Positions 3,718 through 64,000 of a DNA stretch of 64,000 bases are shown piece after piece. A program made the translations under genes and the position numbers. The number at the start of each line of letters is the position of its first letter. The stretch's first letter is position 1. The notes beneath the pieces were generated by a model. It worked only from the letters and a program-made list of their open reading frames with translations, did no database searches and was not told the DNA's origin. This stretch comes from Iphione sp. A-MEVVRFRX5 (taxonomy: Eukaryota). The stretch is taken from the NCBI GenBank assembly GCA_976226885.1, contig OZ320316.1, forward strand, positions 76,632,001-76,696,000. The letters are read 5' to 3'.

Positions 3718-4598
3718 CATGTATATCACACTGATAGTATATCACACTACAGCACCACTCCCTGGATGCAGCCTAGCTTCTCTTAGTGCTGTATGTGGTA
3801 TTATGTGGCAGGCATAGAAGCATATTCATCTACTGCAACACGAACCGTGGTGATTTCATGATATATCAATCTATCCTTTGTCCTTTGTTCCCATTCTCCT
3901 CATAAGTGAGCACTGCAGTAAACGATCAGTGCATTCATCTGCTTGTAAGTAGAGACTCATTAATATACTCTTGTATGCTCAGTGAGGCCATGCTGTCTAT
4001 GGTAGGAATTGCGTATGTTAGGTAACAATTTAACTAGTATTTACCATGTCTCCATAGTATAGCACACGCCAGACAGCCAGCAGCAAACAGTATATCTGAA
4101 GGCAAGTGTACATCGTTTGATGCAACCTAGGAGCTGCAATTTTAGTTCCGGAGGACGAAAGCATAAAAAGCGACGACCACTGGCGAACAATTTCATTTTG
4201 ATCGTGCGATATAAACCAATCGATGAATCATCTATTAACTATAGTGTTGGTAAATGCACTTACTGACGAGCAAAAACGCACGCTACTAGATGAGCATCAA
4301 CGCCATCTAATCTATAAAAATCTCAATGGAATGCATCGTAATGATTAAAACGTATGAATGTTAAAAAAAAGCATCAAACCTTCCAGTCTTGCCGACAGCG
4401 CCAGGTATTTCAGCGACACACTTTAACTGAACTGCTCTGAGCAAATCCCACACGGCTAGAGTTGCAGAATGGGTCGTATTGATTTACGGGGAATCAATAT
4501 GTCGGGAATGGGGCGGAGTGGGCGATCACCTTCTGGGGCATGGTATGATAATGACACGAACTGCTGGCTACCGGACAAGCCCTCTGTTCATCCCATAT

Positions 4599-4726
4599 NN
4601 NNNNNNNNNNNNNNNNNNNNNNNNNNNNNNNNNNNNNNNNNNNNNNNNNNNNNNNNNNNNNNNNNNNNNNNNNNNNNNNNNNNNNNNNNNNNNNNNNNNN
4701 NNNNNNNNNNNNNNNNNNNNNNNNNN
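4599..4726. other. Assembly gap
   Basis: Run of N. Confidence 1.
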
Positions 4727-5324
4727 GGTATAGACGGAGCTATCTCTCTCTCTCTCTCTATCTCTGCTTAATTCGATTACTCGCCGAATATGTGGCAAGT
4801 TTCTTGACATGGGTCCCCGGATTACTGCTGGAGAGTAGGTCTCCCGAGCTGAGATAATGGAGTTATTTATTGTGACGCCGAGGCCGTGCGATTCTGTACT
4901 CAAATATAGAGGGTGTCGAGTAGGGAACGTATTGCTCCGTCCTCCCTGATATAACGAGCATCAAAAGTACATTCTTCTCACATTTCTTCGATTTGAATTG
5001 ACCTTTTTTAATGCGGTTGTGGACACAAATATGTTTACCTGCTGTACATCTATAAGCGGATGTGAAAAATCTCTTAAGATACTGACAATATCATGAAAAC
5101 GATGAAGTTAAGTTTCCAAGCAACGCACAACATGTATTGGCAAATGTACCTGACAGTGAAGCGCAGGTAAGGTGAAGGTTACCACTGTTGGTTGTTCAAA
5201 CATTGTCTGCCTCGGAAAGTTATGCAATTTTATAGTTAAAAGACCGCCCACTCTCCATTTAGTACCCTGAGAGCAATGTGACTATTACAAACACCCATGC
5301 TAAAGCATTTAGTCAATCAATTCC

Positions 5325-5469
5325 CAGAAACCTATTGGGAATAAGAGTATTCTGGTCTCTCAATTCTCAATAATAGATGGTAGTATGCTACCCCAGGAGG
5401 ATATGGAAGAGGCCTGTGATATGATAGGTGAATCTCTAGTTCCTTGTAAAAGATGCAATGAAATGAAAT
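5325..5469 (+). mobile_element. 5'-truncated copy of the same SINE
   Basis: Shares CAGAAACCTATT...TTCTCAATAATAGATGGTAGTATGCTACCCCAGGAGGATATGGAAGAG...AATGAAATGAAAT with the reverse complement of about 13488-13660. Confidence 0.8.
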
Positions 5470-6265
5470 TATGTTGTCCATAACCATTATACCTATGAGT
5501 GTAAGCAGTTTTGTAGCATCTAGTTATACAGTTCGAGTTACACGTTTGGTCTCTTAGTAGACTAAAATGTACGAAACAATCATGTACAACTAGCAGTCTA
5601 GTCCAATGCAGGCTCTTCTTGTACGATACCCATCGAGTTTGTATTGGAAACGATCATTGGAAACATAGATGACACAACTGACGAGGTAGAATGGCTGGGG
5701 TTAGTCAATAAAGAATGCATGGAGGTAAAAGAATTACACAAAAATGCAAGCAGCTGTACTGCAAATTATTAATAATACAATACATCTATAGGTCCAGAGT
5801 TTGAAAACTGCTCTCAGAAGTTCTGCTTTTAACAAGGGGCACTCCATGACGTCCAGACTCCGAGCGAAATTTCAAAGTTTTCATTGCATTCTCCAGCACA
5901 TTCATCTTCTCAAGTCAAATTTCTTGGCACTTCTAACCTCAACCCTCTGGTCAAATGAGGCTGGTGGTAGACAGTATCCCGATGTCTAGGCGTACATGAG
6001 AATATCAAATAATCTCGTCTTCCGTTTGGAGTTGTCCTTAAGGGGCGCGCGCCTGCTTCGCTGGTGAAAGCATGAAGTCATGAATTAGGCACAACTGCCT
6101 GCGGCCGCGGTAAGAGATGGATTACCACCATATCCACCCTGGCTGGACTATGCCCGAACAACGGTGCTTGTTTCAAGGAAGCCTTCGATACTGGCTATTT
6201 GAAACGGAAATATTTTCCTCGGAACATTGTGTATCTGTATCAGCAAACTAAAATATTTTGTTATA

Positions 6266-6979
6266 CAGTGGAGTCTCTATTACCAACCGCATCGATTACC
6301 GACCAAATTTGTTATTGTGACCATTTGAGCTTGGAATGGTAATTCTGTCTATATACATAATCAATATGAGAGGTGATCGATTGCTGACTGAATTGATTTG
6401 CGACTGTTTTCATCCTATGACCAAGCATCTAAAGGTCTTTTTCGGTATATTTTAGTAGTGATTTCCGACCATGTATGTATATGTATTCAGGTACGCTTCC
6501 AGTGGTTTATGAAAAATACACTGAGTTCAACCCATATAATTGTTATTCTTTTAAGTTTTTTGTTTGTATGTGGAGGTACAATACATTGTCTGAGGCATTG
6601 GTAAAGGTGAGAGAGGGACCACTACTCCCTAACAGAGCATTTGGAGGGTTATTCATTGTCTCAGGTGTTGATAAAGGTGTTTTGAGGGGTATTCATTGTC
6701 TCCAAGGTGTTAGCATGACCCAAATTCACCACTTTTAGCACTTTTACCTCTCAAATTGAGCACTTATAGCACTTTTACTCGTCGAATTCACCACTTTTAC
6801 TTGTCAAATCCAGCACTTTTTGGACTCTTACTAAGTTACTTGTAAAATTCACAATGTAGTATGTAGTAACATGCAGTAATAGTACACATGTAGTAATGGT
6901 AATTGATTTGTGACCAAATTTGCTATTGCGACCATTTGAACTCGAACCCGACCTCTGGTAGGAAATAGAGACTCCACTG
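6266..6979. mobile_element. Tc1/mariner(pogo)-type MITE
   Basis: Perfect 16-bp TIRs CAGTGGAGTCTCTATT / AATAGAGACTCCACTG flanked by TA on both sides; no coding capacity. Second copy at about 46375-46910. Confidence 0.9.
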
Positions 6980-9900
6980 TAACAAGAACGGTACTGACAC
7001 ATTTTTGGAGGGTGGGTGGGGATGAGAGATTTTTATATTTATGTCAAATAATACGTAGCATATTTTTTTGAACGAAATGGATAAAATACTATTTTATTAA
7101 ACGAAATCCAAGCTTTTCATATTTATTTCAACTGGAGCTTAACTGCCTTCACCTGAAGCCAATTCCCGTGATGTGTGTGGTGAGATCTGACATTCAGATG
7201 AATAAAATGTTAATTCTAGATTTGCAGCCTAGAACCATGCCACAATTACATTACGCGGGGCTCGCCTGACGATACTAAGTTTTTCTTCCCATCGTACCTT
7301 TTCCTATCCATATTTAATATCCTTCTTCAGGACGTGAGACACCATCAATGTAGACAAGCTATCCTAAGGTCACATCATTTATCATACACATAAGTATGTA
7401 CTTTAAACGGACTAAGAAGTACTTCTACCAATGTTCTTTGGCTTTATTTTAGGTGCTGACCTTTTTTTGTACACAGCACAGAAATCGCGGCATTTTACGA
7501 GACTTACTCTTCTGTTTTTGTTGTCAGCTTTATCTATAAAAAGACCCGAGTCCGCGTTGACATTAGACTGTAGTATGAGTAATAAGTACCTACACACTTC
7601 CACTGCGCCATGTGTTCCCCACTGAAGGGAGAGTGAGGTGGGTAGCCAGGCGCTCTAGGTCGCTTTTTACCATGCTTTTTGTGGTACTGATACAAGCCCG
7701 TAAGCCTGGGTGTTGTGTCCTCCTATGCTTGTGTTTTGTGTTGGTTTGACTCTGTCCACTCCAACACATAGGTGGATATGGGGAAAAATGAACCAACTAC
7801 AATCACTGCTTCCCCTCCGCCGTAGGCAACTGGCCGTGTGCCTCGATCGTGTGGCAAAAGTCAGAATCCCTAACCGGGGGTCGTCACTTTCGCTGGGACT
7901 CAACGTTTTCCATGTAAAATGCGGTCATGTATTCATTTTAGAAACTGGACCACCTGAAAGGGAGGAGACTATTCCAGTGCAGGCAGTGATTTCTAGCTGA
8001 CTATGCTTTACTCTATCACGTTTATATTTAGACGTTTTGCATTTATGTACCAGTATGGTGTTAGTTCCTTTGTCATCAGCAGTATGTCATAGCATAAGTC
8101 ATCTGACCCCAAAAATATATGCCGTAACAGAGAGAAAGTGACCAAAAGATATCTAGCATCTAGAAAATAAGCCTGTTTAATGAGTTTCCTGTCCCAAAAC
8201 GAGGGATACAACGGATTCTAGCCCACATTCTAAGGCTTGAACCTCGGTAACTTAGTAGTTGTCATGTTCCCCACACTAGCAGTTTTATCTTCTTGACAAG
8301 TACAGTGGGAGCTGCGGGCGAATACTCCTAGACTTTGACTGCAAGGCAATACGTTAAGGCCAATCTAGCCAGAAGGGATAGTGGTGTCAAATAAGCCCGT
8401 TAAAATCCTTGCACGAGGCACTTACCACCTTTCAGATGCAAGAGGCTTAGACTTCGTCATTTTGAATACTGAAAACCTTGTCCGTAGTTTGACTATACCA
8501 TGTACATGTATGCGGTATTCTTACGAAGTACCTGAATTATTCCTCTTTGATGTCAGCTTGTATTGGCAGTACAGTGGCGAAAAAGCACGCATATGGAGTC
8601 TTGAACGCGAGCCAACGTAGAAAATAAACATCACAAGAGACATTTGATGGTGAACACAGATAGGGGCTTGCACTGCGGGAAGTACATTCTTTCACAACTA
8701 TAATGACGGCATGTGACTACTGTGAAGGGTATCTAACTAGCGACGTTAAAACGGAAATTAGCTGCAGTTTCTCAGAGCCAGGATTACGTTGTATTTGTCG
8801 CAAACTATCAAAAAGTGCACATTTATTAGGAGCAAAAAAGTTGCAATGTTGGATCTGGTCTTATTTCTGAAGGATCGGATATCAAAACGTTGATTGGCAT
8901 TTTAATCAGTTCTCAGATTAAAGGATTTTAGAGGGCGAGGCTTTCACTGTGAAGGTTGCTTTTCTGAACATATTAAAAATGGCAAATTTCCTCTCCTTAA
9001 ACCGGCCACGACTGTCAGGCGCTGTCTACACGGAGGCCGCAGTAAGGTGAGACTAGGCTGAGGGAAATGGACGGGTACGGTTATAAATCAGTAACGGAGG
9101 GGCGTGTTGATGACAGCATATGAAAACGTGAATTACTGTGTATTGTAAGAGCATGGCGTTTCCTGTCGCTAGTACGCCTTGCAGAATTTTACTCTAGAAA
9201 TGTTATATTTCTGTAAGGCTTAAGAAAAGGTTCTTTGTTTCCAGTAGCAAGCTGAATATCTAGAGGGTCACTAGGTCGGTGGTATATTTTTTACTTTTAA
9301 AAAAATGTTAATTCATATCCAAAGATGGAAATATATATGGTAACATATTGGACGAAACTTATATTAAATAAAAAATAACAATGTAAGCAACACAATGGTG
9401 TATTGCATATGTCTCTATCATTATTCATTCCAAAGATAAAAATATTAACAAAAACATAATAAAACAAAGTGTTCCAGTGGGGCAAAAAGCAGGGTCAGTC
9501 GGGTTACCCGATACACAGATGTGCTTTGTTTAGGCATAAATAATGTGATAGTGGTTTTATTTGACAAAAGGGTTGGTATAAGAAGGATTTTAAAAATGTA
9601 CAAGATCGAAGATATGTATATCTAATCCAGACATCTGGAGTAATATTTCCCATGCCTATAGTGATGTTTTTTCCCAAAAAAAACATCTCCATCGAGATGT
9701 ACTGTCTACGAGCTTACTTGTAATGTCTCGTGGAGCATTTGCCCCATGCCTTTTATCAAGTGTGCCTGCAGAGATGTACTGTGTGCTTGCAATGCGCACC
9801 CAAATGTCACTCACGTTCGTGTATCAGCTGCGTCTGGATCCGCATTCACAGATAGCCAAGCTTCCGCTGGTGGTCTATGCGCCCCCCCCTCCCCCCACCA

Positions 9901-16800: not shown

Positions 16801-17399
16801 CTGTGCATTTCATCAGATGGTTTGGAAGTTAAAAGACCCACAAGATCATGAGAGAGGGTGGGACAGCCGGACAGCAGTATTCCTAGAGTCTCCTCCCCTC
16901 CTACACTCGTGAGCAGTGGGTTTTGTAAAAAGATAATTTCAGGTATTAAAAATTTGTTTGTTTATTTGCCAGGGGGAATTCCTTGACTACACGAACTAAT
17001 TTGGAGCCACCTGATTCAGCTTAACAAAGGCAGTTACAGTAGACGCTTCCCCTTTCATATTTCAAGGTAGTATCTGTTGCTTTATTTTCCTATTTACTAG
17101 TAACAATACACTGTAGGGACGTCCATAAATACATGTTTAAAAATGAATAATCAGATATAACAGCTTTTTGTATGGAATAATGTGAATAAATAAATGATTG
17201 ACCCATTCCAAACGAATAAACATGTCCGTTGATAAAAAAAAAACTAATAACACAGTAATACAACTGACTAATACGTGCAGTAATAAGCTTGACGTCGTGC
17301 AGCTTCTTCGTCTGGAAATATAACGGTTGATTCTGTTCCGAGGAATAAATGTGCTCATAGTGACCCAACACCTTTAAGAAACATGACATGCCTGCTTAC

Positions 17400-20195
17400 C
17401 TTGGCGTCTTTTTCGTCTTGTTTCACAACGTCGACAGCCGCTGACATAACGTCGTCGACGAACTTGCGCGCCACATCCATGTGCACGGCCGCCTCCACCA
17501 AGTCGTCCGAATTTCCGGACACCATCGATGCCCCCGTGTCACTGCGCATGCGTGAGACAAAGTCACGCGTCGTCTGAGAGAGGTCACTATCGCCGGATGC
17601 GTAGGACGTGTCCGAAAAGTCGGAGATCTGGCTGTCGCTGTGCGGCCGGCCAGTAATGTCGGGGATGAGCAACTTTTGACGCTGGTTTTCTGATGTCTCT
17701 GGCAAAACAAACGTAACTGTACTCTCTCTAGCCACCTGACCGATTTGCTCACTTGGTGCGGTTTGTTGCGGTTTAATTTGTTGTAAGTCTATACGTTCGT
17801 TGACGTCTGGCATATCGGATGAATCTACTGAAACGCCGGTCGGTCCTGTTCTAGAAGATGAGTCCTCCTCAGTATTGGCAGTGACTGCGGCTCCTGTGGG
17901 CCTTTCGCTACTTGCATCAAATGCTGAAGTGGCCGAGGCCTTTTGGTGAGCACTCTCCTTGTGAACATCTCTTAAGGATTCTCGGTACGACGTTTCTTCC
18001 GCCTGCGCGAGCTCCTGTTGAAGAGATCCTTCGAGCGAGATTAACTCTTCTCTGGCTTTCTGGAGCACCTCCTGAACGAGTTGCTCAGCCACGTCCACCT
18101 CGTCCTCGCCAGTGAACCTCACAGTATTTGACTCCCAGATACACGGTGCATCCATACTAGCTGTCGGATGGCTTATGTCCCGTTCACGCATTTCTTGTGC
18201 AATCTTATAAGCAATGACATTCATATCATCTGAACGTGCGTATTGTTCGCTGTCGGTGGCCATGTTCGCTTCCCCTTGTGTCGTTTTTTGTACATTTTCG
18301 GAGTCTGGATTGACAAGTTGGTCAATATCAGCTGGCGGATTTCCCTCCCTTTGCTTCATTTCTTGTGCAATTCTTTGAGCAACGACATTACTAGAGTCTG
18401 TGTCGACAACTTGTTGGTTGACATCGGCGGATTTACGTTCCTCGCGTTTCTTCATTTCTTGGGCGATTCTGTTGGCCACTACATTACCAGAATCAGGAGT
18501 ACCTAATCCAATGGCATTTTCCTCTTGCTGTTTCATTTCTTGTGCGATCCTGTGAGCAACTACATTATCCGAATCCAGATTGAAAGGTTTGTCCCTATCA
18601 GTGGGTGCATCACGCTCGCGCCGCCTCATATCTTGAGCTATTTTATATGCTACTACATTACCGGAGTACGGGTTGACAACCTGTTCTATGTCTTCGTCAC
18701 CTTGTGATGCATCCCCTGTATTTTGCGTCAATGTACTACTGAGATCGGCTGGGTAAATGTGCCCTGGTAATGAATCCATATCTTCATCTTCCTCCTCAAA
18801 GGTGTCTAAGTTAGATCTCGGTGGACGCTTGCTCATGTGGGCAGCGAGCTCCTCTTGGAGCAGCTCCGGAGGGGCACCCAGTTGCTGCAGCTCGGCAAAC
18901 GAGCTGTCCACAAAGCTGTTGGGCGGCGTGAAGGGGAACTTGAGCGCCTCGGTGTCGGCCACTACCTCAGTGCTGCCACTGGACTGGAGGCCAGATCTCT
19001 TGTTCTGAATGGTTTTCACCATTTCCGCGTTATTGAAAGGGGACAGGATGGACTCCCGCGTCAGGTGGGCGAGGGAAGAGTCGGACACACTGTTTTGTGG
19101 CGTGAAGGGGAAGTGCTCCACTGACTCGCTCAAACTGTGCCCACCGCCGCCGCCGTCGCTGGTACTACTCTCGCCATAGTCGGCGCCGTCCTGACCGACC
19201 CTGGCGTCGGTAAACGCCGCCTTCTTGGCGTGAATACGACGCACCATGTCGGCGCTCATGAAGGATGGCAGGTCCTGCTGGCCGGACCAGCCCGCCAGGT
19301 TCCCCGCCGCGTTGGCCGCCCCTTCGGGGTCGATGTAGCTGTTTGGCGGCGTCGCCGGATAACTAGCGTTGGGCGGGCTCGTTGGCTGGCTACACGCTTC
19401 CGGTGTAGTCCCCGGGTCGGGAGTCTGGCCCTGCAACGGCGATGACTCCATCAGCAATCCTTCGTGTCCGTCAAACAGATCACGCGACGATTCGGAGGTC
19501 GTCCTCGCCCCGGTCCGCCTCTTGGCGAGCAGCTCGACAGCTGCGGCAGACGGCTGCACCGGGCTTTGGCTATTATCTTCTAACAGGGCGTCTGATATGA
19601 GATCGACCAACTCTTGCTGAGATTTGGCTGGCAGCTCCTCCTTCGGCTCGGCGTCGTCCGCATAGTCCTCCAGAGAACTGAGCGTCCCAGATTCTGAGCA
19701 GTTCTCCTCCTCCTTGGGAGCAAATAAGTCTAAGTCTAGGAGCCCACCAGGCTTAATACTGTCCGGCACACAATCTGACTGGGGTTTCAAGATCGGCAAT
19801 TCCGCGCTACCACTACTGAGAGCAGCTGCTACCTGCTCTCCCGTGGTGGGTTGTAGCGGCTCACTCCAAACCTCAGGATTCTCAGAGCTGACGCCACTAG
19901 CCTCGGTGGCGCCAAAAGGATCGGGAACCTCGCTGGGTGTTTCTATACTGGATTTACTGCCACTAGCGCCTTCCCCGGACGGGCTCTCCAGCAGGAGTCC
20001 GCTATCCTGCGACACAGTAGTAGGCTGTTGCACTACTGTCGGGTGACAGTCAAGCCAGGCTTTTAACTGTGGCAATACACTTTTCCTGGAGGCTTTGAAG
20101 TTGCCCTGTCGAAAGGCGGAGATAGTCGGCGTCAGCGTCGTGAGAGGTGATAGCTCCAGTGTAGGCTCCGTGCTCGTCGTTAAGACATCGGACAC
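17400..20195 (-). CDS. Very large internal coding exon (932 codons): acidic, Ser/Glu/Asp/Pro-rich, largely disordered; PRUNE2/BMCC1-linker-like or part of a downstream gene
   Basis: Stop-free for 2796 nt. Acceptor gtatttttag|GTG at 20195 and strong donor AAG|GTAAGC at 17400; phase 0 at both ends. Same strand as and downstream of prune. Assignment to prune is inference. Confidence 0.85.
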
Positions 20196-39436: not shown

Positions 39437-39944
39437 CTGCAACAAGACATGTTGGAAAATAAGGTCCAGCACTGGTAAGCAAATGACCAAATACGTGTAT
39501 ACAAAAAACAAGGCGAAGCCAACTACTACTGATTAGCTTAGCCTCAGCTTAAAAACAAAAGCAAATGATCCCATATATTGCATGCTTTTCCTCAGATGGA
39601 TTTCTTATCCGATACCTACCTTATACACCGTTTGTAATATAGATGTTTTCCGTTTCCTATCTAGAGCGATAATGGTTATAATCCGAAAAGAGTACGCTTG
39701 ATGTGATACCGAGTGGGCATGTTCTCTTGTCTTCAACATGAAATTGTTTCCCCTGGTATCCAAATAATCCCTTTATACATACATGCCTGATTAAGCAGTA
39801 CATGTACTTTAAAATATTTTTACTCTTTTGCATCATATGAATACTGGATATGCCCCCTCCCCCTCCCGATTACTTAATGTCGCTAGTGTATCAAATGTGA
39901 ATATGCTCCCCTCCCCTGCCGTTGACATGGTAATGGTGACGTAC

Positions 39945-40228
39945 GGCTTGTTTTCCGAATGCTCACTCCGATGATGGTCGATGACCTCTACGACCGCGTC
40001 CTCCAGGTCAAGGTCAGAGGGCGACAGCACGTTGTGGTCGACCAGACTCAAAGACAGCCGCGACTCGGTATGTAGCTGCTCCAGGCTGATCTGGTCACGA
40101 AATGTTAACAATTCGCTGGTAATGTTAGCGGCCCGGGTTAAGTGGAAACATGCCTCAGAGCGGAGGCGGAAGTCGACGCTCGGGATGTTGAGGACAGGCA
40201 CGAACTTCCGGTGGTCACCATCACGCGT
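39945..40228 (-). CDS. PRUNE: Prune exopolyphosphatase (DHH family), internal coding exon (about human exon 3 plus start of exon 4)
   Basis: Acceptor cag|ACG at 40228 and donor CC|GTACGT at 39945; 284 nt, phase 0 to 2. Encodes FVPVLNIP...FRDQISL...LVDHNVL...VVEVIDHH, the classic prune/PPX1 DHH-domain motifs. Confidence 0.93.
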
Positions 40229-40396
40229 CTGAAAAGTGAGACAGACATATACCTGACTAATATGCCAAGCAGCGTTTGATTATTTTTACTGAGTGAAATT
40301 TTGAAAAACTGGCGCGCGAATCCCTCCCTGAGTATGCCCATCATAACGCGGATTCGTGTTCAACAATGTCCTTTCCGGAGAGATGAAAGAACGGGT

Positions 40397-52674: not shown

Positions 52675-54428
52675 ACTCTCTTCCCCTCTCTTTTTCCCTC
52701 CTTCCGTCCCTTTCTCTCTCTCCCTTCTACCCTTTCTGTATCTTTAGCGAGGGAAAAATTCACATCAATCAAGACGTGCCATAAAATTCACCTGCCCAGC
52801 TTAATGCTACCTTAAGAAATGGAAGAATTCCTTCCATCGGACTGCAGTTGACAGAATAAAAAAAATGTGATACAGGAAAGCAGACCTGCAAGGTCTAGTG
52901 TCCCCCACCATCAAGTGCCAATTTCATGCTTACTACCCACCCAAACTCAGTAGGCCTGGCCACTACTTCCCTGCTGCAGGGCACCTCCTTTGGTCAAACT
53001 ACTACGAGGTCGTACTGGCAGAAGGGAGATATAGTTAGTGTGTGGATGTGTGTGTGCATGTGAGTGCATTGTCAGACCTAGCAATCCCTGAACTGGGTAT
53101 GTATGTTTGTGGGTGTGTTAGCAAAGGAGTAAATTGCCATAATTTCACATTTAGAATGCTTGTATTACTACCAAAATCATCCAGTATTAGGAGTCTCATG
53201 TTCATAAATTTAACATATTAAAATCAATTTATTGACTGAAGGGTTTGAGAATTATAAGACCCACAAGAGTGTGACAGGTCGGACAGTCTGCCAGCAGCAA
53301 TCCTAAGGTCCCCCTGTCTATGAGGCAGGGGACAGTAATATCATCACTCTCTTGGTAACTGTCTTGTATAGGAAATTTATTGTTGACAATGTTTTGTGGG
53401 AGATAAGAAGAGTTTTGAAAAAAATCTTAATAGTGCTATTCTCATCAGGCATGATAATGTATATGGTGTCAAGGTATTTAACAAGTGTTGATTTTCTTCT
53501 ACCCATATTACCATCGTGTTAGTGTGGTGATTTTACAAGAGACAAATTTGGTGTGATGTACACTGGGTTGTGGGCAGGGTTATTGACTTGTAAATAGAAA
53601 ATTGATCGTCCCCCTGCCATGCCAATGTTGTACTATAAAAAAAATGGGAAACACGAAGACTGAGTGTGTACATGTGCACAAGTATACATGCTATTACGGC
53701 CCCAACATAATAAAGACATACTCGGAGATTGGGAGAGAAGGTGTAGTACTTGAGTCAAAATCCAAAAGACAAAGGGCCCTTGGATATTGGACATGGACTT
53801 GTTTCCCAAATTGGCGACATGCCCCTTGGATGTTGGACATTGGTCTTGGTTCCAGTATTGACGACCTGGGGCCTATGCTGATGAGACCGGCCGTTTCTTG
53901 AGTTTCACGGCCTTCTGTGCTGGGTGGTGTCATGGGGTGGACGGCCTGGGGGTGGGACATAACAACATGCCCTAGGTGGTGTGACGCCAATGCAGTTGGG
54001 GCAGAAGGTTGTAGATGAGCTGTGGGTTGACCTGTGCAGACAAGATAGCCACTTCATGTCCCACCACAAACGGCCCTCCTCTGATCCCACGTATATAGAT
54101 CAGAGGAGGCCCGGGGGCGCATCCACCGACCAGGAAGCCTGTACTGTCCCTCTGGTTACATATTCGATTAGAGGAGGGAGCCATCGACTGTGCCTCCCCA
54201 ACAGGACCGTACTGTCAAAGGAGGGAGGGATGGAGGGACTGTACTGTCCTGTCCAACAACACATATATACATATTCACCCGCAGCTGCCACCAAGGGAGA
54301 GAAAGGCACATACTGTCTAAGCTGTGTATGACAGTCCTGGTAACTATGATGCAATCCTAACGCCATCCCATTGTGACATCATGACCCCCTTGCAACTACG
54401 ATTCCCTCCCCTTCAACAGTAATCATAG

Positions 54429-54589
54429 TGTTGGGCCTGTGCCCAAGATTTGCTCAAGGTTAACACTGACTATGTAAGGGACTGAGCTGAAGGGGTTTGT
54501 TGCCATTCTTGTCTGCTCCTTCTTGAAATAAACTTCAGTCAAATTGCACTACAAAGAGTCATGTCACTTCGTTCGTTTCGGGGCGAACA
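54429..54589 (+). repeat. 5' LTR (161 bp)
   Basis: TGTTGGGCC...GCGAACA with AATAAA at 54527-54532, followed by a 2-nt spacer and the PBS. The first 26 nt match 63961 onward at 21/26. Confidence 0.85.
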
Positions 54590-54591
54590 TT

Positions 54592-54609
54592 TGGTGGCAG
54601 TAGTGGGAT
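54592..54609 (+). promoter_or_regulatory. Primer-binding site, tRNA-Leu type
   Basis: TGGTGGCAGTAGTGGGAT directly after the LTR, near-complementary to the tRNA-Leu 3' end (...ATCCCACCGCTGCCACCA). Confidence 0.8.
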
Positions 54610-54902: not shown

Positions 54903-55910
54903 GTGGCTAGTCTGGTGCCACCCATGGGCGAAGCCTCACCTGCGCCAAATCAAATAGATCCAAGAGAGGAAGTCAACAGACAAGAAGGCCAGGACTCCCT
55001 TTCTGGGGAGGAAGGCAAGTCCCACGCTACCAGCAATGAGGACAATGAGGAGGTGGCCGAGACGGCTGAGGCCATTCCGCTGTGGCATGGGCTAGTTACC
55101 GAGCTGAAGACGGCACTGTGCCCTGGCGAGGCCCCCAGGTGCTCCCAAGTCAAACCCGATGTGTATGATGGAAGCACATCATTCAGGAATTTTCTCCAGC
55201 ACTTCAAGCTGGTGGCCGCTGCTAACCGGTACAGTGAGGAGGACAAGGCCATACAGCTGGGGATCACACTGCGCAAGTCACCACAGGGAGTGCTGCACAG
55301 TGCAGATGTGGATATTATGAAGGCTGGCGCCTACCAGCGGTTAATGGAAGCCCTCACCAAGCGGTTCAAGTCCCGGCACCAAACTGATGCCTACATTCAA
55401 CAACTTAAAGGCAGGCGCCAGAAGGACAAAGGATGAAGGACGAAGGACTTAGAGATCTAGCAGATGAGATGGAACACCTAGTCCAATTAGCCTACCCAGA
55501 GGCTAAAGGGATGTGGAAGGACCACATGTGTAGGGAGTACTTTACAGGACCCCTGCGGAACGAGAAGGTGCGGAAGTGGGTCACACAGGCCCAAGTGTCC
55601 ATATTCCGTTGGGCCCTATCATCGGCTCAGGTCACTGAGTTGTACTATGGCAGCAAGAATGAGAGAGTCGGCCCTAAGAAGATTCACCAACTGGAGGCTA
55701 CTCCTGCTGCTGGAGCTGCTGAACAGAAGATGGCTTCCGCTAAAGAGGAGGCATGAGCAATGGGCTGAATCAAGAAGTTACTTCAGTACATGTAGTTGCT
55801 TGAGGAGAGTAGCATGGCTCAGAAGGAGACGAGAAAGTCTGGCCCGAAGAAGTGCTTCCAGTGTGGCAAAGTGGGCCACTTCTGGCACGATTGCCCAAAG
55901 TTGCCTGTGG
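54903..55910 (+). pseudogene. gag: Gypsy gag, frameshifted and with premature stops
   Basis: KPDVYDGSTSFRNFLQHFKLVAAAN...LADEMEHLVQLAYP; CCHC knuckle CFQCGKVGHFWHDC at 55853-55894. Confidence 0.9.
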
Positions 55911-56029
55911 AGTGTACGACACTGTCCGGAAACGGGTTGGCGGCTGCCCCTCAGGTCTGATTCGGGTGGCCACCATTGTACCGCCAAGGAACCAAACACC
56001 CGAGCCGGAAAGTTATCTTTGGGTGTTGC

Positions 56030-59000
56030 AGCTGGAGATCGGAGAGGAACTTTGGTTGGAGGGAGAGCGTTTTCCTTCCTCTAACATTGTTTTGACCAGT
56101 CGAGTCTGAGGAGAGATGGTTCCCTGGTTGGTTGACACAGGAGCGTCATTGACCCTGATAGCCACGGAGGTGGCTGAGCGAGTAGGTTTAGGGCAGCTTG
56201 AGCCAGTGGTAGGGCAGATCCTATATGCTGATGGGAACCCACTGCAGATACAGGGCAGGAAGAGATTCTATGTCATGTTCAGAGAACTGGAACTCTGGGT
56301 GAAGTCGTGGGTTGCCAGTATCGACTGTCCGGCAATCCTGGGCCTCAACACCCTGAGGAGAAGGAAAGCGCAAGTAGATACCGAGAGGGCAGCCCTCCGA
56401 GTAAGGATGCCTGAAGAGGAGCAGGTCGGAAGCTGCAAGGTGATACTGGCTGAGGACTGCCAGCTTGAAGGAAGAAGCGCCAAGGGGGGCCAGGGTGACT
56501 TGGCCAGAACTGAAGGGCATCGGAGGAGTGGTGCTAGTGGAGGCTGCCCCCGGGTGGGCAGGCTGTTCTGGGCTGAACCTGGCAAGGACACTGCGCGGTG
56601 TGGGAGCAACTACCGGAGTGGTGGAGTTGGCTAACCCTGGACACTTGGGTTGCTGTCTGCGGCAAGGAACTATAGTGGGGCAAGCTTGCTGGCGAAACTC
56701 CCGGAGAGCTTGACGGGGGAAGAGCACGGCCTGGTGGGCCAGATGCTGGAGGAACATCAGATGTGCTTCCAAGAGAAAGGAGAGCCACTTGGTAGTACTG
56801 AAGAGGTGTAGCACAGGATTGTTGTCCAGGGGCATGTGTAGATATATCAACAAGTTCATCGACTGCCCCTGGCCAAGTGTGTGGCCGTGCAGCGGGAAGT
56901 CTGGAAGATGCTGGACCGGGTTGTGCTGGAGCTGTCGACCAGCCCCTGGACATCCCCTGCCATTCTGGTGAAAAGGAAGGACCAGTCATGGCAATTCTGC
57001 ATCGACTATCATGCCCTGAATAGGATCACGAAGAAGGAAGCCGACCCACTCCCCAGGATAGACGACACCCTGTATGCCCGAAGGGATGAAGTATTTCTCA
57101 GCCTTGGACTTGGCCAGTGGGCACTGGCAAGTCCAGATGCACCCTGCGGATCGCGAGAAGACTGCTGTGTGTACTCCGGGAGGCCTCTACCAGTTCAAGG
57201 TAATGCCGTTGGGATTTTGTAATGCCCCGTCTACCTTCGAGCGGCTCATGGAGGTAGTGCTCCGGGGCCTCATGGGAACTACCTGTTTGGTCTACCTGGA
57301 CGACGTCATCGTGATAGGACCTTCAGTTACCAAGATGGTTGATCGGTTGGCAGAGGTGTTCCGGCAGCTGAGGGAGGCAGGATTGAAGATCAAACCGGAG
57401 AAGTGCCAGCTGTTCCAGATTGAGGTGGCATATCTGGTAAGGTTTGGGTGGTAGAAGACTGGCCGACGCTACAATGTCTTACAGAGTTGAGGAGCTTCAT
57501 TGGGCTGTGTTCGTACTACTGCAGCTTTATCCATGGATTCACCATCGTTGCCAGCCTGCTGCACCGGTTGCTGGAGAAGGGGGAGGCCTTTCGCTGGATG
57601 TTGGAGTATGAGGACGCTTTCCAGACCCTCAAGGGGAAGTTGATGACAGCCCCCATTCTGGCCTAACCATGACCGGAAGGGAAGATGACCTTGGATACCG
57701 ATGCCTCGATGCAAGGAATCGGGGAGGTCCTGTCTCAGGAGCAGGGCGGCAAAGAGCGAGTTCTAGCGTACACCAGCTGCAGCCTCACCTGACCTGAGCA
57801 GAACTGCTGCGTGACCTGCAAGGAACTGTTGGCGGTCATCTTCGGCCTGCAAAAGTTCAGGTATTATGTGGGCGACGTGCGTATCATTATCAGGACGGAC
57901 CACAGCTCTCTCAGTTGGCTGTGTAACTTCTAAGAGATGCAGGGGCAACTGGCGAGATGGCTGGAAGAAATTCACTGGTACGCTTTAGAGATCGTCTACT
58001 GGCCGGGCAGGAAACATGGCAATGCTGATGGGTCATCATGCATGGTCTGCCCCCAGTGTGGCCGCAACGGAGTGGAGGAAGAGGAGGAGGAGGAGCTACA
58101 CGGGACCGTAGCCATCATCCGAATGGTGGCCGGAGCTGCCGAGGACCTGAAGCAGGTGCAACAGGAGGATGGGACAGTGGCAGAGCCATGTCATGCGACT
58201 TGAGTTCTTCTGGCCCGGATTAGCCCGAGATGCAGAGCGGTGGGGCTGGGCTTGTGAACAGTGTCAGAAATGTCAGGACCCGGCGAGGAAACATCGGACG
58301 CCATTGCAGCTGAGGGTGGCACCCTGGCTGTGGGAGATGGTCGCTGTGGACATCTGTGGGCCGTTCCCGGCACCGCTACATCTTGGTGGTCGCTGATCAT
58401 TTCACCACGTGGGTGGAGGCTTTTCCGATGGAGGAAGTGGGGCCAGAGGCCATCACTCACGTGCTAATGAGAGAGGTGGTCTGCTGCTTCGGCCCCCCTC
58501 AGATCCTCCATTATGACCAGGGACGAAATTTCGAGGCCACCACTATGAAGGAGTTACTTGCGCTGCTCGGGATACAGAAGATGCGCACGGCACTGTATCA
58601 CCCGCAGAGTGATGGGGTCATCGAGCGGTTCAACCAGACATAAGCAGGGATGCTGTTAAGGAGGATCAAGCGAATTGGGACCAATGACTGCCCTATGTTT
58701 TAGCTGTCTATCCGGCTACCCCCCACCGGGCCACTGGATTCACCCCGAACTGGATGATGTTGCAACAGGAGACAACGCTGCCGACTGAAGTGATGGTGGG
58801 GGCGGCTCCAGCCTCTGCGGTGTCCTGAGTGGAGTATGTGGAGCTGACAGAACAGCGCCTAGTCAAGGTTTACTGACAAGTACATCAGCAGTTATAGAGG
58901 CTAGCCAAGCAACAGGAGGATTGGTATGATCGTGGCGTCAGAGAGCAGAGCTATTCCTACCAGTGAAGAAAAGAGGAAGATCTCCAAAGTTACAGAGCCG

Positions 59001-59379
59001 CTGGTAAGGACCATGCACAGTAGAAAGCAAGCTTTCGGAGGTAATCTACCGCATTAGCCTGGGCCACAAGTGCCGTGTAGTGCATGTCGACCTGCTTTAG
59101 CATGCCCACAAAGATCCAGAGGAAGACACATTGATGCAGACCCCAACATCAGTTCCACCACAAGAACCTGTGATCGGGCGACTCTGCATGCTGCACTGGA
59201 GTACCAGCAACCCCAAGACCCCAGTAGGATTCCAGGCTGAGAGGAGGATGGGCGAGGGGCGCTCCCCCAGAAAGAAGGAGGGGAGGATGCTTCCCCCACC
59301 CCATTGGCTTAGGCCCCCAAGACCGACAGCCATGAGACCAGGAGGGGGGCAGCAGCCCACGGACCAGGCCGTTCGATGA
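56030..59379 (+). pseudogene. pol: Gypsy pol (aspartic protease, RT, RNase H, integrase), disrupted
   Basis: LVDTGAS (protease); SPWTSPAILV, FCIDYHALN, LDLASGHWQ, MPLGFCNAPSTF and YLDDVIV (RT); LDTDAS (RNase H); FFWPG..CEQC, VAVDICGP, DQGRNFE and YHPQSDGVIERFN (integrase). Confidence 0.95.
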
Positions 59380-60290
59380 CGGCTGATATCTGAAAGCAGG
59401 AGGAAGGAGAGACAGGTGAGGAGCTACACAATTCATGATGTCCCGAGGGGGTGGGTCAACTTGATACAGGAACAGCTGGAGGAGCTGTTACGACAGACCC
59501 GCCAGACCTTAAGCCCCCGACCATCAGCTGTGATCAGCGAAAAACAGCAGAGGAGAAGCACTGGTGGGCCGCCGAAGTGGCAGTTGAGCAGAGCATTGTG
59601 GAAGCTCCAAGGAATCAGGACCAAGCTGACCAAGCGCTATGGAAATGCAGTGGTGGAGCGATTGATACGGGTGCTGTGGAAACAGTTGGTCACTGCCTGG
59701 ATGCCCCACCCCAACCACACCAGAAGTCATCGTGAGATAGCATGTCGCCAGCCAACCCTGGATGGAGCACGGCGGAGTTCCCATTGGCCTCTGGGCAGAA
59801 TTCTAACAGTTGTGGCGGACTCCGTCAGGGACCGGCCAATCAGAAGGCGGCACACGAAAGTTTGACTTTGCTGGAGTGACGCCACTGGGACTATAAGGAA
59901 ACTTGGGGCGGGGGTCGCCCGATACCCGTCTGCGAGGAATCCACCACGCCAGGAGCTGCATTACTCTGCCTGAGAAGAAAGATGAAGTTTTATCGCCGGG
60001 AGAGTAACATTGAGAGTGGGGCTTGGCCTGAGCCTCCCTCCCTTCGAAGAGCAGCGGAAAAGCCATCCCTGCCTGAATCTTGGCAGTCGCCCCCAGGGTC
60101 AACAATTTTGATGCATTGAGTCCAAGTAGCTCTAACGGAGCTAGTGGCAAGCCAGGACTCAGCCGGAGGGTGCCTGGGTTCACTACAACATTTGCCAGAG
60201 CAGGGCCGGGTTGTGGGCAGGGTTTGTGGCAATGTTTTATCAGAGAGGACTGGGCAGAGCTCTATGGACAAACAGACCTCAGCAGAGACG

Positions 60291-62180
60291 ATGGCCTCTA
60301 GGGGATTTTTCTGCACTCAGTGTCGATTCACCTGTACACGCTACCCCAACCTGGATACGCACCAGGACTTGGAGGTACCATGCTGTTGCCCTGATCCAGC
60401 GTGTGGGGGGAGGGTGCATTTTAAGCACTGCAAGGACTTTAAGCAACACCTGGAAAAGAAACAAAAGAGGGAGGAGCACTGGCTAACCGTGGGTCAGCAG
60501 GCCGACATGTGCTTCATCAACTACCAAACAGGGGAAGACGTGGAGGTGCCCCCGGAGTATGATGCCGAGGTGGCGCTGGCCAAGTGCAAGGAGGAGCATG
60601 AGCGACAGAAAGAGCTGGCCATCATGAAGGGGTAACCGGCACCATCTTGGCCCCAGTTCCCCAGGCGCCCAGCTAGAGGTTGGCTTCTGGCCAAGAAGCG
60701 GGAGCTGCCCACTCCGGAGCCAACCGCCGAGGAGGACGAGCAGGAGGATAGTGAACAGGAGGAGGAGCAAGACCAGTCTGCTGGCCCCACCTTGCAACCC
60801 CGAGAAGGACGTAATGGACTTGTGACTTTGACCTCCCGCAGCAACTCCCGGAACCAGCAGCCACCGTCCAGGCGGGGTCTCGTCCTAAGCCCTCCCCGAT
60901 GACCCCCAACAAGTAGTGGACTTGTATGGATTGGACAGTTCCCCCTCAGAGAGGGGCCTGACCCCAAAGTTGCAGAAAGCAGCCAGAGTGAGTGAGGCTT
61001 GACAGCGACTCCAGCCTCCTTCTGCAGTTCCTGGACCCTCTGGAGGCAAGACCCGGGCGGGCAAGTTGCCAGCCAAGCGTGCCTGTGGGGAGCAGCCAGA
61101 CATCACCATCAAGCGGGACCCGAGGCTCTGGGAGAGGCCAGCCCGTTACCAGCCCATGACCTCCCTTATTTCGCTGGTGGGCACCCCCAACCGCTGTCAT
61201 CCGTGCCTGGCTGTGTGGGATCTTTAGTTGCAATGTCTCCCCTAGTGCGGGGGGTGCTCACCTCAGGAATAGCGGACCCCAACTTACCTGCTTCTGCCAG
61301 ATGCCCAAGCTTGCTGGAATTGGACGTCCAGCTTGGAGCTAGCTGGATTAACGTGGAAGCTGAGGAGAAGGGAGTGGCCCCTATCGTATTGGACTCAGAT
61401 GAAGGCGAAGAGGACCACAAAGACCTAGGGCACCAGGAGGTGGATACGTCCGGACAGGGTGAAGACCAAGGCACCGTGGTGAGCATTGTTCGTTATGCCC
61501 AGACCGAGGTTGAACGCAGTGGGGGAGACCAGCCCTCCCTTAACACCCCCCAGTTTGAGGATCGCCAAGACAGTGGAACCCTACCCATGCTCGCCACGCC
61601 CTCGGAGACTGAGCTAGTGGCCGCGCTGGCCACCCTAGCAGAGGTAGTGGAGGTAGGCCCTGTGGATGAGGGAAGAGAAGTTCCACCGACCGGAGACCGG
61701 CCGGGGATGGCCACGGACCCCGCCAGGGGTCTGGCGATGATTCCGGCAGCAGCTCCGCCCATGTCCCGGGTGGAGGAGGAGAGACCGGCTACCCCTGCCC
61801 AGCCTCTGCCGACCAACCGGGTGGAGACCGGCGGGGAATCTTCGGTTGGGGCCACTACCACACCAGAGCAGGAGGCTGAATCCAAGACAGCAGAGGGAGG
61901 AGGAACCCCCCAGTGCAAATTGGGATGACAGTCGGTGCCCCACAAGCAGGGCACCGCATTGGCATCAGCAAGGCCAGGGACCCCCCAGGTGGACCTGGGA
62001 CGGCGGTTGGCGCCCCATGAGCTGGGCGCCACACTAGTCACTGCCACTGTGACTACCAAGACTACCCCCCTTCTGGCGACATCAACTCCAGCTGGGGACA
62101 CCAGAACCACTGTAGCGGCAGCCCCAGTAACAGACCGAGGGACACATATCCAGGCAACCCAGGGGCTGCCCCCTGACTGA
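60291..62180 (+). pseudogene. Accessory ORF3 of the gypsy element: N-terminal C2H2-like zinc fingers, then a long acidic Pro/Thr-rich region
   Basis: A single frame from ATG 60291 (MASRGFFCTQC) to TGA 62180, 630 codons, broken only by point stops at 60633, 60900, 60993 and 61926. It joins track ORFs 60144-60635, 60999-61928 and 61935-62180. Confidence 0.75.
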
Positions 62181-62190
62181 CTGCACGCTG

Positions 62191-63642
62191 ATGGTCCGGA
62201 CCACCAGGCACCAGCTGAGGTGGGCTGACCCCAAGGTACCAGCCGCGGTTTGCTGGTGGGCTGGAGGACTAGTGCTTACCTTGACAGCAGAGCCACCAGT
62301 TGGGTGGCACCTGGCTACAGTGGAGGGAAGGACTGAAGTGGAGATCATCAAGGGGGGTTCCCTAGTATCACACTGGCAGACTACCGAGTTGTGGCTCCAA
62401 ACTCCGGCACCACAGGACGCAGCAGGACTGGAGATCTGGGCCTCACAGCAGCAAAGAGACAAGCCAGGAGTACACTTTAACCCCTTACCGTCCATGTTAA
62501 TTGATGTTTTTGAAAGGGGGACCAGAGGTATGAGATTAGCTATCCTTGTGTGAGTAGTATTCTGATAGAACTGATATTATACCATACATCCCTGGAAACC
62601 TTAGGAATTGCACTTTAATTTAGCATCAATTTTGTTCTTATAATTCAGTTGCCATGGCAACAGAAGAGCCCTGAGTGTAGTTGATTTTTTAGGAAAATAA
62701 TCAGAAATTTCTACTCATTGACAATAAATCTCTAGAAAGAGTTATAAATATTGTTTTTAGAGAAAAACTTACTATTGAGGAAATATTCAGCAAGCGTTTT
62801 GCAATCTTTTGATGCCTCATTCGTTATTGTGCATAAATTTAGTATATTGTATCATAATCTGGCATTTTGTATCTATTACCCAAAAAAATGTTCCATCACA
62901 TTCATCAGCTGCATCACTAATGCTGCATATGCAACCTTGAGGTGTTACCATGGTAACAAATTAAATAATTAATCAATGATTTAGCTGGTTCTAAACTCCT
63001 ATCAGGTAGTCCAGGCCTTTGTATGTAATTTTTATAGAAAATACAACACATTTTCAAAGAATTTGGCAGATGTTATGTAATACCTCTCATCATATATATG
63101 CCCATTGATATTGGAGGTGTAATGGATATTGGTGTATCATATTTTATGTAATCAAATAAAAGAGAGTGCAAACTGAAACAAAGTTTCTCAAAATCAAACA
63201 TCAGCTCCAATTCTGTAGTATTATTTCAAAATAGAATGGAAATCTATATATTACTTCAAATATTCAAGGGCTTGCTTTCCTCATAACACAAATGTGCAGC
63301 CTAAACATAACACTTGCTCAAATTTATGCAAATGAGGAAGGTCATGTGATCAGTTTTAGAGGCTTCCTTGTCAGAAAAGGTGAAAGTTCTTGTGCAGCCT
63401 GAGAAAAGGCCCATAGTCTGGGCATATTTAGAGAAAAATGGATAAAATCCCGTTAAAATTAATGGTTGTATATTCAGACTAACTTCTATCATACATATGT
63501 GTATGATTTTACCATTGTTGGACGGTAAGGGGTTAAGAGCTGCTATTGGCAGTTCGGGGCAACCCAGCTTGATGAGATGAGGACGACTGTGTGGTGGGAG
63601 GTGGATTACGTTATCAAGTTGGCACCCACCACGCATACCTAG
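62191..63642 (+). pseudogene. Accessory Trp-rich ORF (131 aa) of the gypsy element, split by a MITE; may be the frameshifted C-terminus of ORF3
   Basis: 62191-62480 joined to 63537-63642 gives a stop-free 132-codon frame ending ...KPGVHFKSCYWQFG...VWWEVDYVIKLAPTTHT*. Confidence 0.75.
62481..63532. mobile_element. piggyBac-type non-autonomous element (1052 bp) nested in the gypsy element
   Basis: Perfect 14-bp TIRs CCCCTTACCGTCCA / TGGACGGTAAGGGG with a TTAA duplication at 62477-62480 and 63533-63536; AT-rich non-coding interior. Confidence 0.92.
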
Positions 63643-63948
63643 GTAGAGGTAGCTTGAGGTCCTGTAATGGATCCTCCTTGAAGAAATGTTGGGGTCTGTA
63701 CTGACCCCAGTTGTTAAGGATCTCAGTTGGGTGACCTGTATTGGCCCCTCTGTTCCTTTCACATGTAATCTCTGTTGGCCTGTACTGGCCCAGTTATTGT
63801 TGTAGTACTTTTTCAGAATAATAAGCAAAACATTTTGGCCTGTACTGGCTTTGATGTAGGATCCTTCTTGCAAATAATAAAGGAAACAGGGGTACATGTG
63901 TTGATCACATTTATTGTCATTATTTGGGCTCAGGGTCTGAGCCAACCC

Positions 63949-63960
63949 AGAGGGGGACGG
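63949..63960 (+). promoter_or_regulatory. Polypurine tract
   Basis: AGAGGGGGACGG immediately before the 3' LTR. Confidence 0.75.
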
Positions 63961-64000
63961 TATTGAGCCTGCACCCAAGATTAGCTTAACTCCAGCTGGA
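63961..64000 (+). repeat. Start of the 3' LTR
   Basis: TATTGAGCCTGCACCCAAGATTAGCT versus 5' LTR TGTTGGGCCTGTGCCCAAGATTTGCT. Confidence 0.75.

Follow-up and report, generated by a model that had tools for sequence, protein, structure and literature searches.

A decayed Ty3/Gypsy retrotransposon with a probable third gene downstream of pol that may encode a zinc-finger regulator

The window, by which we mean the whole stretch of 64,000 nucleotides analysed here, contains a decayed Ty3/Gypsy (Metaviridae) retrotransposon in animal-type DNA. Downstream of pol, a nearly open frame is very probably a real third (accessory) gene borne by the element. Nine related elements have two-finger genes in the same place and, therefore, these elements probably encode their own regulator. 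We tentatively propose that the decayed third gene encoded a nuclear, DNA-binding zinc-finger regulator of the element's own expression and was probably spliced; we hold this at a little under an even chance because it combines a very probable accessory gene with a regulator role to which we give about one half.

The element, all features of which lie on the plus strand unless stated otherwise, has gag followed by pol in the order PR-RT-RH-IN. PR, RT and IN were recognised by Pfam (E 2e-05, 1.7e-26 for RVT_1 and 8.1e-09 for rve), RH reached E 0.089 but aligned with 71 pol relatives. The 5' LTR (54429-54589; 161 bp, TGT...ACA, with AATAAA inside) ends 2 nt before a primer-binding site (PBS) of tRNA-Leu type (54592-54609), which is two mismatches from the PBS of the related element L091; a 12-mer of the L091 PBS is typed as Leu in the supplement of PMC13524379. 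The broken gag (54903-55960), assigned from the sequence, has a CCHC knuckle near 55853-55894, and tblastn with the relatives reaches 55149. The broken pol (56110-59330), delimited by Pfam and the relatives' alignment, contains PR, RT, RH, IN and a GPY/F-like region, and the pol relatives align up to about 59100-59307. Related pols mostly stop within about 100 residues past the GPY/F-like region and many have an R.PP.W-like end; such a motif is present in the window near 59300. The following 177-codon frame with one stop (59332-59865), in frame with the integrase tail, is unexplained; it may extend pol or be a second accessory ORF. It is basic and helix-like, with an ESM recognition of 2546, gave no ESM match and had no convincing match in the 71 pol relatives (best E 0.37).

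At the 3' end, an untranslated region (63643-63948) with three exact copies of CTGTACTG(A/G)C is followed by a polypurine tract (63949-63960) directly before the start of the 3' LTR (63961-64000), which runs off the window after 40 nt. The first 29 nt of the 5' LTR recur only at 63961, with 6 mismatches (23/29 identical), while the next best site in the window has 10; given these mismatches and no closer site in the window, the insertion is old. Across the element, CpG is reduced to 0.4-0.5 relative to 0.73 for the window's first 50 kb, a depletion that methylation by the host would account for. A longer LTR common to 53601-54428 and the 3' untranslated region was rejected, with 65 of 200 shuffles scoring as high. 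All five exact matches of the pattern CTGTACTGDC in the window are on the same strand, two just upstream of the 5' LTR (54139-54253) and three in the 3' untranslated region (63696-63849); the pattern was picked by eye, the regions holding it have no colinear homology to each other, and it is a candidate binding motif. Elsewhere in the window, a host 946-codon acidic exon with internal repeats lies at 17355-20195 on the minus strand, and what we take to be a Prune-like host exon lies at 39833-40279, also on the minus strand; the retroelement may lie in or beside the host gene of those exons.

The post-pol frame at 60291-62180 has 630 codons and translates as described in an earlier sequence-only reading. 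It has four internal stops (60633, 60900, 60993 and 61926) in addition to the terminal stop, compared to 20 and 27 stops in the other two plus-strand frames. Base shuffles had 19.8 +/- 4.2 stops, and none of 2000 had five or fewer. Because four internal stops in 630 codons stand against about 20 expected, the frame is real, as the sequence-only reading held. Moreover, the codon bias of the finger frame matches that of the element's own pol in the codon model described below, and the GC content and CpG decay of the ORF also match pol. No membrane segment was apparent by hydropathy: the highest 19-residue value was 1.48 in the main frame, the N terminus is hydrophilic, and the remaining gene pieces reached at most 1.29. 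Likewise, neither a signal peptide nor a membrane anchor of the errantivirus env type was apparent by hydropathy across the whole gene, and the whole frame had no match in Pfam. Because it lacks a membrane segment, the ORF is not env. The same reading held that the gene took the place of env; however, in 11 related elements (L005, L019, L031, L081, L083, L085, L088, L092, L093, L094 and L113) the LTR directly follows pol and, therefore, nothing indicates that env was ever present. In total, the stop depletion, the codon bias, an acceptor with a start context and the nine relatives bear out a non-env accessory gene on the element, with a zinc-finger-like N terminus.

The gene probably differs in extent and integrity from what had been described. 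A codon model trained solely on the element's gag/pol frames (679 codons) was used in place of a G1-G2 periodicity score, which was rejected as confounded by G-rich third positions. The model favours the reported frame at 60130-60800 and 61090-62050. Its preference shifts weakly to another frame at about 60850-61090, a stretch that contains two of the four stops, and clearly to another frame at 62170-62480 (10.2 and 10.8 versus at most 2.1). Thus, contrary to the earlier statement that no indels interrupt the frame, indels are probably present. Similarly, the end at 62180 is probably wrong: the frame preferred from 62170 continues to an insertion and reopens beyond it, and its stop ends at 63642. 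The gene probably extends past 62180, through a frame change and this piggyBac-like insertion, to about 63642 and, therefore, probably has roughly 750-770 codons. The insertion (62481-63532, unstranded; 1052 bp, 33% GC) is a non-coding MITE that is flanked by TTAA, has perfect 14-bp TIRs and occurs only once in the window; we presume that it is piggyBac-like from its TTAA target site. Upstream of the insertion, the probable C-terminal continuation in the different frame (62131-62478; 116 codons without a stop) scores 10.2-10.8 in the codon model and is richer in hydrophobic residues; downstream, the last 35 codons and the stop (63535-63642) are in the frame of 62131-62478. With stops, indels and the insertion, the window copy is dead; dead and single, its value is therefore as a pointer.

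At the 5' end, the frame is open from 60120 and has in-frame ATGs at 60264 and 60291, of which the latter has the better context (A at -3, G at +4). A candidate splice acceptor (TTTTATCAG; 60233-60243) has the top pyrimidine score of the 42 YAG sites in 59331-60291 and lies 20 nt upstream of ATG 60264 and 47 nt upstream of ATG 60291. The encoded protein begins with two degenerate C2H2-like fingers (60291-60470; C8-C11-H24 and C33-C38-H53, without the canonical fourth His). They are followed by a predicted charged helix (60560-60632; residues 92-111 in a low-confidence single-sequence model with a mean pLDDT of 40, at which the model of the window protein is unusable). The next region (60636-62130) is acidic, rich in Pro/Ser/Thr and probably disordered, as judged from composition, the codon model and a three-frame reading, and its frame is ambiguous at about 60810-61230.

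The Cys/His motifs are present as described, i.e. C-x2-C-x12-H in finger 1 and C-x4-C-x14-H in finger 2. Finger 1 matches the C-x2-4-C-x12-H core exactly; finger 2 has x14, as does finger 1 of the relatives L082, L090, L091 and L146. Full C2H2 status is not borne out, as neither finger of the decayed copy has a His 3-5 residues beyond the first His. The best Pfam C2H2 score was below threshold (15.4 bits versus a cut-off of 27), matches in the ESM Atlas were to unnamed or generic C2H2 clusters, at 0.90-0.94 and with few shared features, and the ESM recognition of the N terminus was 2288, just below the 2300 mark.

We used the 114-aa N terminus of the window ORF as the query in searches for homologues. 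It had no match among 29 candidates (proteins of 201-2000 aa), nor among 1.84 billion representatives, a set whose animal share may be small or large. Two stretches of viral contigs passed the filter. None of 59 metagenome stretches matched, none was found in phage records, and a further search gave none of five. Matches in 5 of 380 genomes at E 0.001-0.007 were taken as chance. Because the protein, viral, metagenome, phage and genome searches yielded no close homologue of the window protein, relatives were sought via the integrase.

The integrase-anchored set comprised the 71 pol relatives and 127 loci. A pattern screen covering the higher-scoring loci (tblastx sum of 150 or more) detected three loci with two canonical C2H2 fingers just after pol, i.e. 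L082, L090 and L091, which ranked 2nd, 9th and 3rd, respectively. Profile searches of 380 genomes around the assembly of L091 added six (L130/L142, L145, L146, L147, L173 and L176), giving nine related Gypsy elements with a C2H2 ORF directly after pol; in L176, the contig stops beyond the first finger. The matches L144, L174 and L175 were rejected, as they do not adjoin a Gypsy pol, and the contig of L144 as well as L175 carry polB/ATPase-type genes; also left out were L133 and L139 (control fingers only) and the weak L134-L137 and L150-L154. A 654-aa post-pol ORF in L029 was rejected as an ORF3 and is the gag of a tandem copy. Eight of the nine elements are in assembly G001 and one is in G258; therefore, host breadth is narrow. 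The G001 and G258 loci are evidently, by inference, animal-host contigs inside symbiont MAGs. G001, G002, G258, G382 and other prokaryote MAG contigs contain many eukaryotic transposons (Gypsy, and polB-type elements carrying C2H2 arrays), which are evidently DNA of the hosts that was binned together with symbionts.

Where the contig reaches, the layout of the nine ORFs is constant, with fingers followed by a disordered tail. The tails are RS-rich and basic in L090, L091 and L146, and acidic or P/S/T-rich in L130, L145, L147 and L173. Complete ORFs have 325-430 aa and start at most about 1.8 kb after the pol stop, mostly under 300 nt. A pyrimidine-rich YAG precedes the ORF in 8 of 9 relatives and, in 7 of 7 checked, lies 0-7 nt before the ATG; L173 has two acceptor-like sites, but its frame lacks an ATG within the first 32 codons, and L176 has a TATA-like box in place of an acceptor-like site. 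In the finger regions of L082, L090, L091 and L146, pN was 0.24-0.44 versus a pS of 0.79-0.96 in all six pairs, and pN was 0.38 versus a pS of 0.75 in the C-terminal domain; pS is saturated and, therefore, these values give no exact pN/pS ratio. The comparison indicates purifying selection on ORF3 in the four elements close enough to compare. Finger 2 of four relatives has the pattern R-x-D-N-x-x-R-H, which we take to be that of DNA-reading C2H2 helices; finger 1 of the window retains its R and N.

Four of the five members in which the ORF end was seen have a conserved C-terminal domain of about 75 residues (GAPS...DG..Y.L...W). This domain had no match among 14 candidates, in viral contigs or in five further assemblies, no Pfam family, and no sequence match in the PDB (best E 0.87). 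Its model (pLDDT 66), which has one helix and three strands, matched no known fold clearly (none in Foldseek at E 0.001; best Z 4.4). Several chains of the dsRBD type reached Z 2.9-3.6, no more than a weak lead. TQT motifs, which we presume to resemble the LC8 dynein-light-chain sites in the zinc-finger factor ASCIZ, occur near the ORF3 C terminus in L091, L173 and L010, and none is present in the window pieces, L130 or L145.

Other post-pol regions in the set are of different kinds. L010, a related Gypsy element with a Leu-type PBS, has a post-pol region (7989-9540) with a C-x2-C...H...C start, a T-rich acceptor and an acidic disordered frame; this coding region had no Pfam match. In the tandem Gypsy copies L029 (9612-10439), L086 (5921 onward) and L062 (6444-7703), an ORF separates pol from the next gag and by eye looks SGNH/GDSL-esterase-like, as in rotifer ORF3s. 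The distant Gypsy element L111 has a 979-codon post-pol ORF (3955-6894) that is env-like: its start resembles a signal peptide, and a hydrophobic segment lies in its C-terminal part.

The window element resembles the nine-element family (L082, L090, L091, L130, L145, L146, L147, L173 and L176) in its broad pol clade, the sense position of the ORF between pol and the LTR, the pyrimidine-rich acceptor before it, the N-terminal fingers and the disordered tail; where a PBS was seen (L090 and L091), it is of the Leu type, as in the window. The two differ in that the family has canonical His-His fingers and shorter proteins, whereas the window ORF is longer, with degenerate fingers in an apparently swapped order. 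At the level of sequence, any homology of the window ORF to the family is weak. The family N-terminal finger HMM gave 4.0 bits on the window, a score reached by 15 of 1000 shuffles; the C-terminal profile gave 0.2 bits, reached by 31 of 1000, and no GAPS motif is present. The hhalign probability was 34% for the fingers (E 4e-4) and 0.4% for the C-terminal part. With ligands and core fixed, random filling was as good as window finger 1 on the family finger-2 model in 4 of 2000 cases and as good as window finger 2 on the finger-1 model in 27 of 2000. Scored together with 25 genuine, unrelated C2H2 fingers, window finger 1 ranked 5th of 26, i.e. four unrelated fingers outscored it, supporting a genuine C2H2-like finger rather than orthology. 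In a pol tree of 58 rows and 416 columns, the window lies on a long branch inside a clade with support of 99.8/100, its nearest node having 56.6/47, and a second tree without most distant loci (47 rows, 544 columns) gave a similar placement. The 99.8/100 clade holds both ORF3-bearing and ORF3-less elements and gives no resolved sister to the window.

Zinc fingers with an acidic disordered tail are the usual build of a transcription factor. In the mechanism that we propose, a spliced RNA from the LTR or gag region would join the acceptor before the ORF, and the protein would act in the nucleus. Its N-terminal fingers would bind zinc and may recognise the element's own DNA, thereby regulating its transcription, and the long acidic tail would serve as an activation or recruitment surface. 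The protein may thus activate the element, or keep it active, in a methylating host. Counting against a DNA regulator are the degenerate fingers, the absence of a close homologue of the window protein from the searches above, the weak scores against the family, the apparently swapped finger order, a pol tree that does not set the window and the finger-bearing elements apart from those lacking fingers, the origin of eight of the nine relatives from one assembly, the basic RS-rich tails of three of them and the presence of only two fingers, which would read only about 6 bp. A broader version, in which the spliced third gene of a widespread animal Gypsy clade encodes a sequence-specific C2H2 transcription factor that recognises the element's own motifs and drives or protects its expression, with the window as an ancient diverged member, strikes us as somewhat unlikely; such a factor would mirror the zinc-finger repressors of the host.

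The main rival is that the gene encodes an RNA-export factor, made from spliced RNA and binding the unspliced genomic RNA like HIV Rev or CERV of the C. elegans element Cer1, a reading that we consider unlikely. With an internal acceptor, the element must export unspliced RNA; the acceptors in eight of the nine relatives and the RS/SR dipeptides of L091 (33) and the L090 tail (18) agree with this, and the basic RS-rich tails of L090, L091 and L146 point to RNA rather than DNA work. However, the acidic tails of the window, L130, L145 and L173 have few RS (2-7), and the second finger of the relatives has a DNA-type recognition helix by the C2H2 recognition code. CERV, a nuclear accessory protein with a Cys finger and a spliced mRNA, is required for unspliced RNA to be exported (PMC10309623), but it is encoded in the gag region and not after pol. 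It is quite unlikely that the frame is a passenger, i.e. a host zinc-finger gene or transposon piece captured by the window lineage alone and unrelated to the nine-element family. Family homology is not significant, a single copy was examined, and C2H2 arrays on other transposons in the same contig sets are possible donors; by contrast, no host or transposon homologue was detected among the 1.84 billion representatives, in which animals may be poorly covered, the base composition, CpG decay and codon bias match pol, and the position and layout are as in the relatives.

Very unlikely, in our judgement, is a very long C-terminal integrase extension whose fingers steer integration like the chromodomain in chromoviruses. 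The frame of the integrase tail stays almost free of stops up to 59865 (3 in 311 codons), as does the finger frame from 59880, and, unlike in the relatives, no AT-rich spacer follows pol. Against this, the R.PP.W-like motif that ends many related pols is already reached near 59300, no frame rises much above zero in the codon model at 59770-60130, the finger ORF is separate from pol in all nine relatives, and an acceptor and start context are present. Finally, we find it hardly credible that the gene is env or an env-like fusion gene, or that the frame is open by chance in GC-rich DNA: the location after pol and the GC content of 60%, which lowers stop density, would allow it, but this reading is already largely refuted by the lack of a membrane segment and of a Pfam match for the whole frame and by 0 of 2000 composition-matched shuffles being as open.

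A C2H2 factor of their own would equip LTR retrotransposons with a regulator of the viral type, be it a transactivator, an anti-silencer or a Rev-like exporter. The question of how such elements stay active in methylating hosts would become testable, and intact natural genes (for example L091, L130, L145 and L173) provide ready material for binding and reporter assays.

Post-pol accessory genes are already known, and the described animal ones are mostly env or enzymes; animal Gypsy examples with post-pol genes include env-carrying elements (PMC13524379). A zinc-finger ORF after pol does not appear in the available portions of mollusc, annelid, fish and Troyka surveys (PMC6238403, PMC8556966, PMC8220671, PMC8672886, PMC11117352 and PMC12440569). 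Full-text literature, a scope outside which most subscription papers fall, contained no published description of a Gypsy post-pol C2H2 ORF that we could find, and a curated Repbase/Dfam/GyDB entry may exist. The set of intact tandem-C2H2 ORF3 genes in the related elements is apparently undescribed.

Sense additional ORFs between pol and the 3' LTR (aORF-3S) are established (PMC7264820), and the window gene resembles them in position, orientation, probable spliced expression and presence across related elements; the aORF-3S are from plants and insects and env-like, some with membrane segments, whereas the window ORF is animal, soluble and zinc-finger-like (PMC7264820). CERV is likewise an animal LTR-retrotransposon accessory protein from a spliced mRNA, nuclear, with a Cys-rich finger and flexibly linked folded domains, a likeness by description; by contrast, CERV has exons common with gag, a putative C4 finger and a G-protein-like domain, while here C2H2-like fingers lie downstream of pol (PMC10309623). 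The LTR elements of bdelloid rotifers are also animal, Gypsy-like and equipped with a non-env ORF3, but their ORF3s are GDSL esterases and DEDDy exonucleases and not zinc-finger proteins (PMC5408684). Finally, VANC21 and VANC6 of Arabidopsis VANDAL elements are transposon-encoded accessory factors that act on their own family through a short repeated element motif; they belong to a plant DNA transposon and their anti-silencing has been shown, whereas any such role here would be an analogy (PMC6719617). In the window element, a 10-mer repeated near both ends would be the counterpart of that motif, as a binding candidate only.
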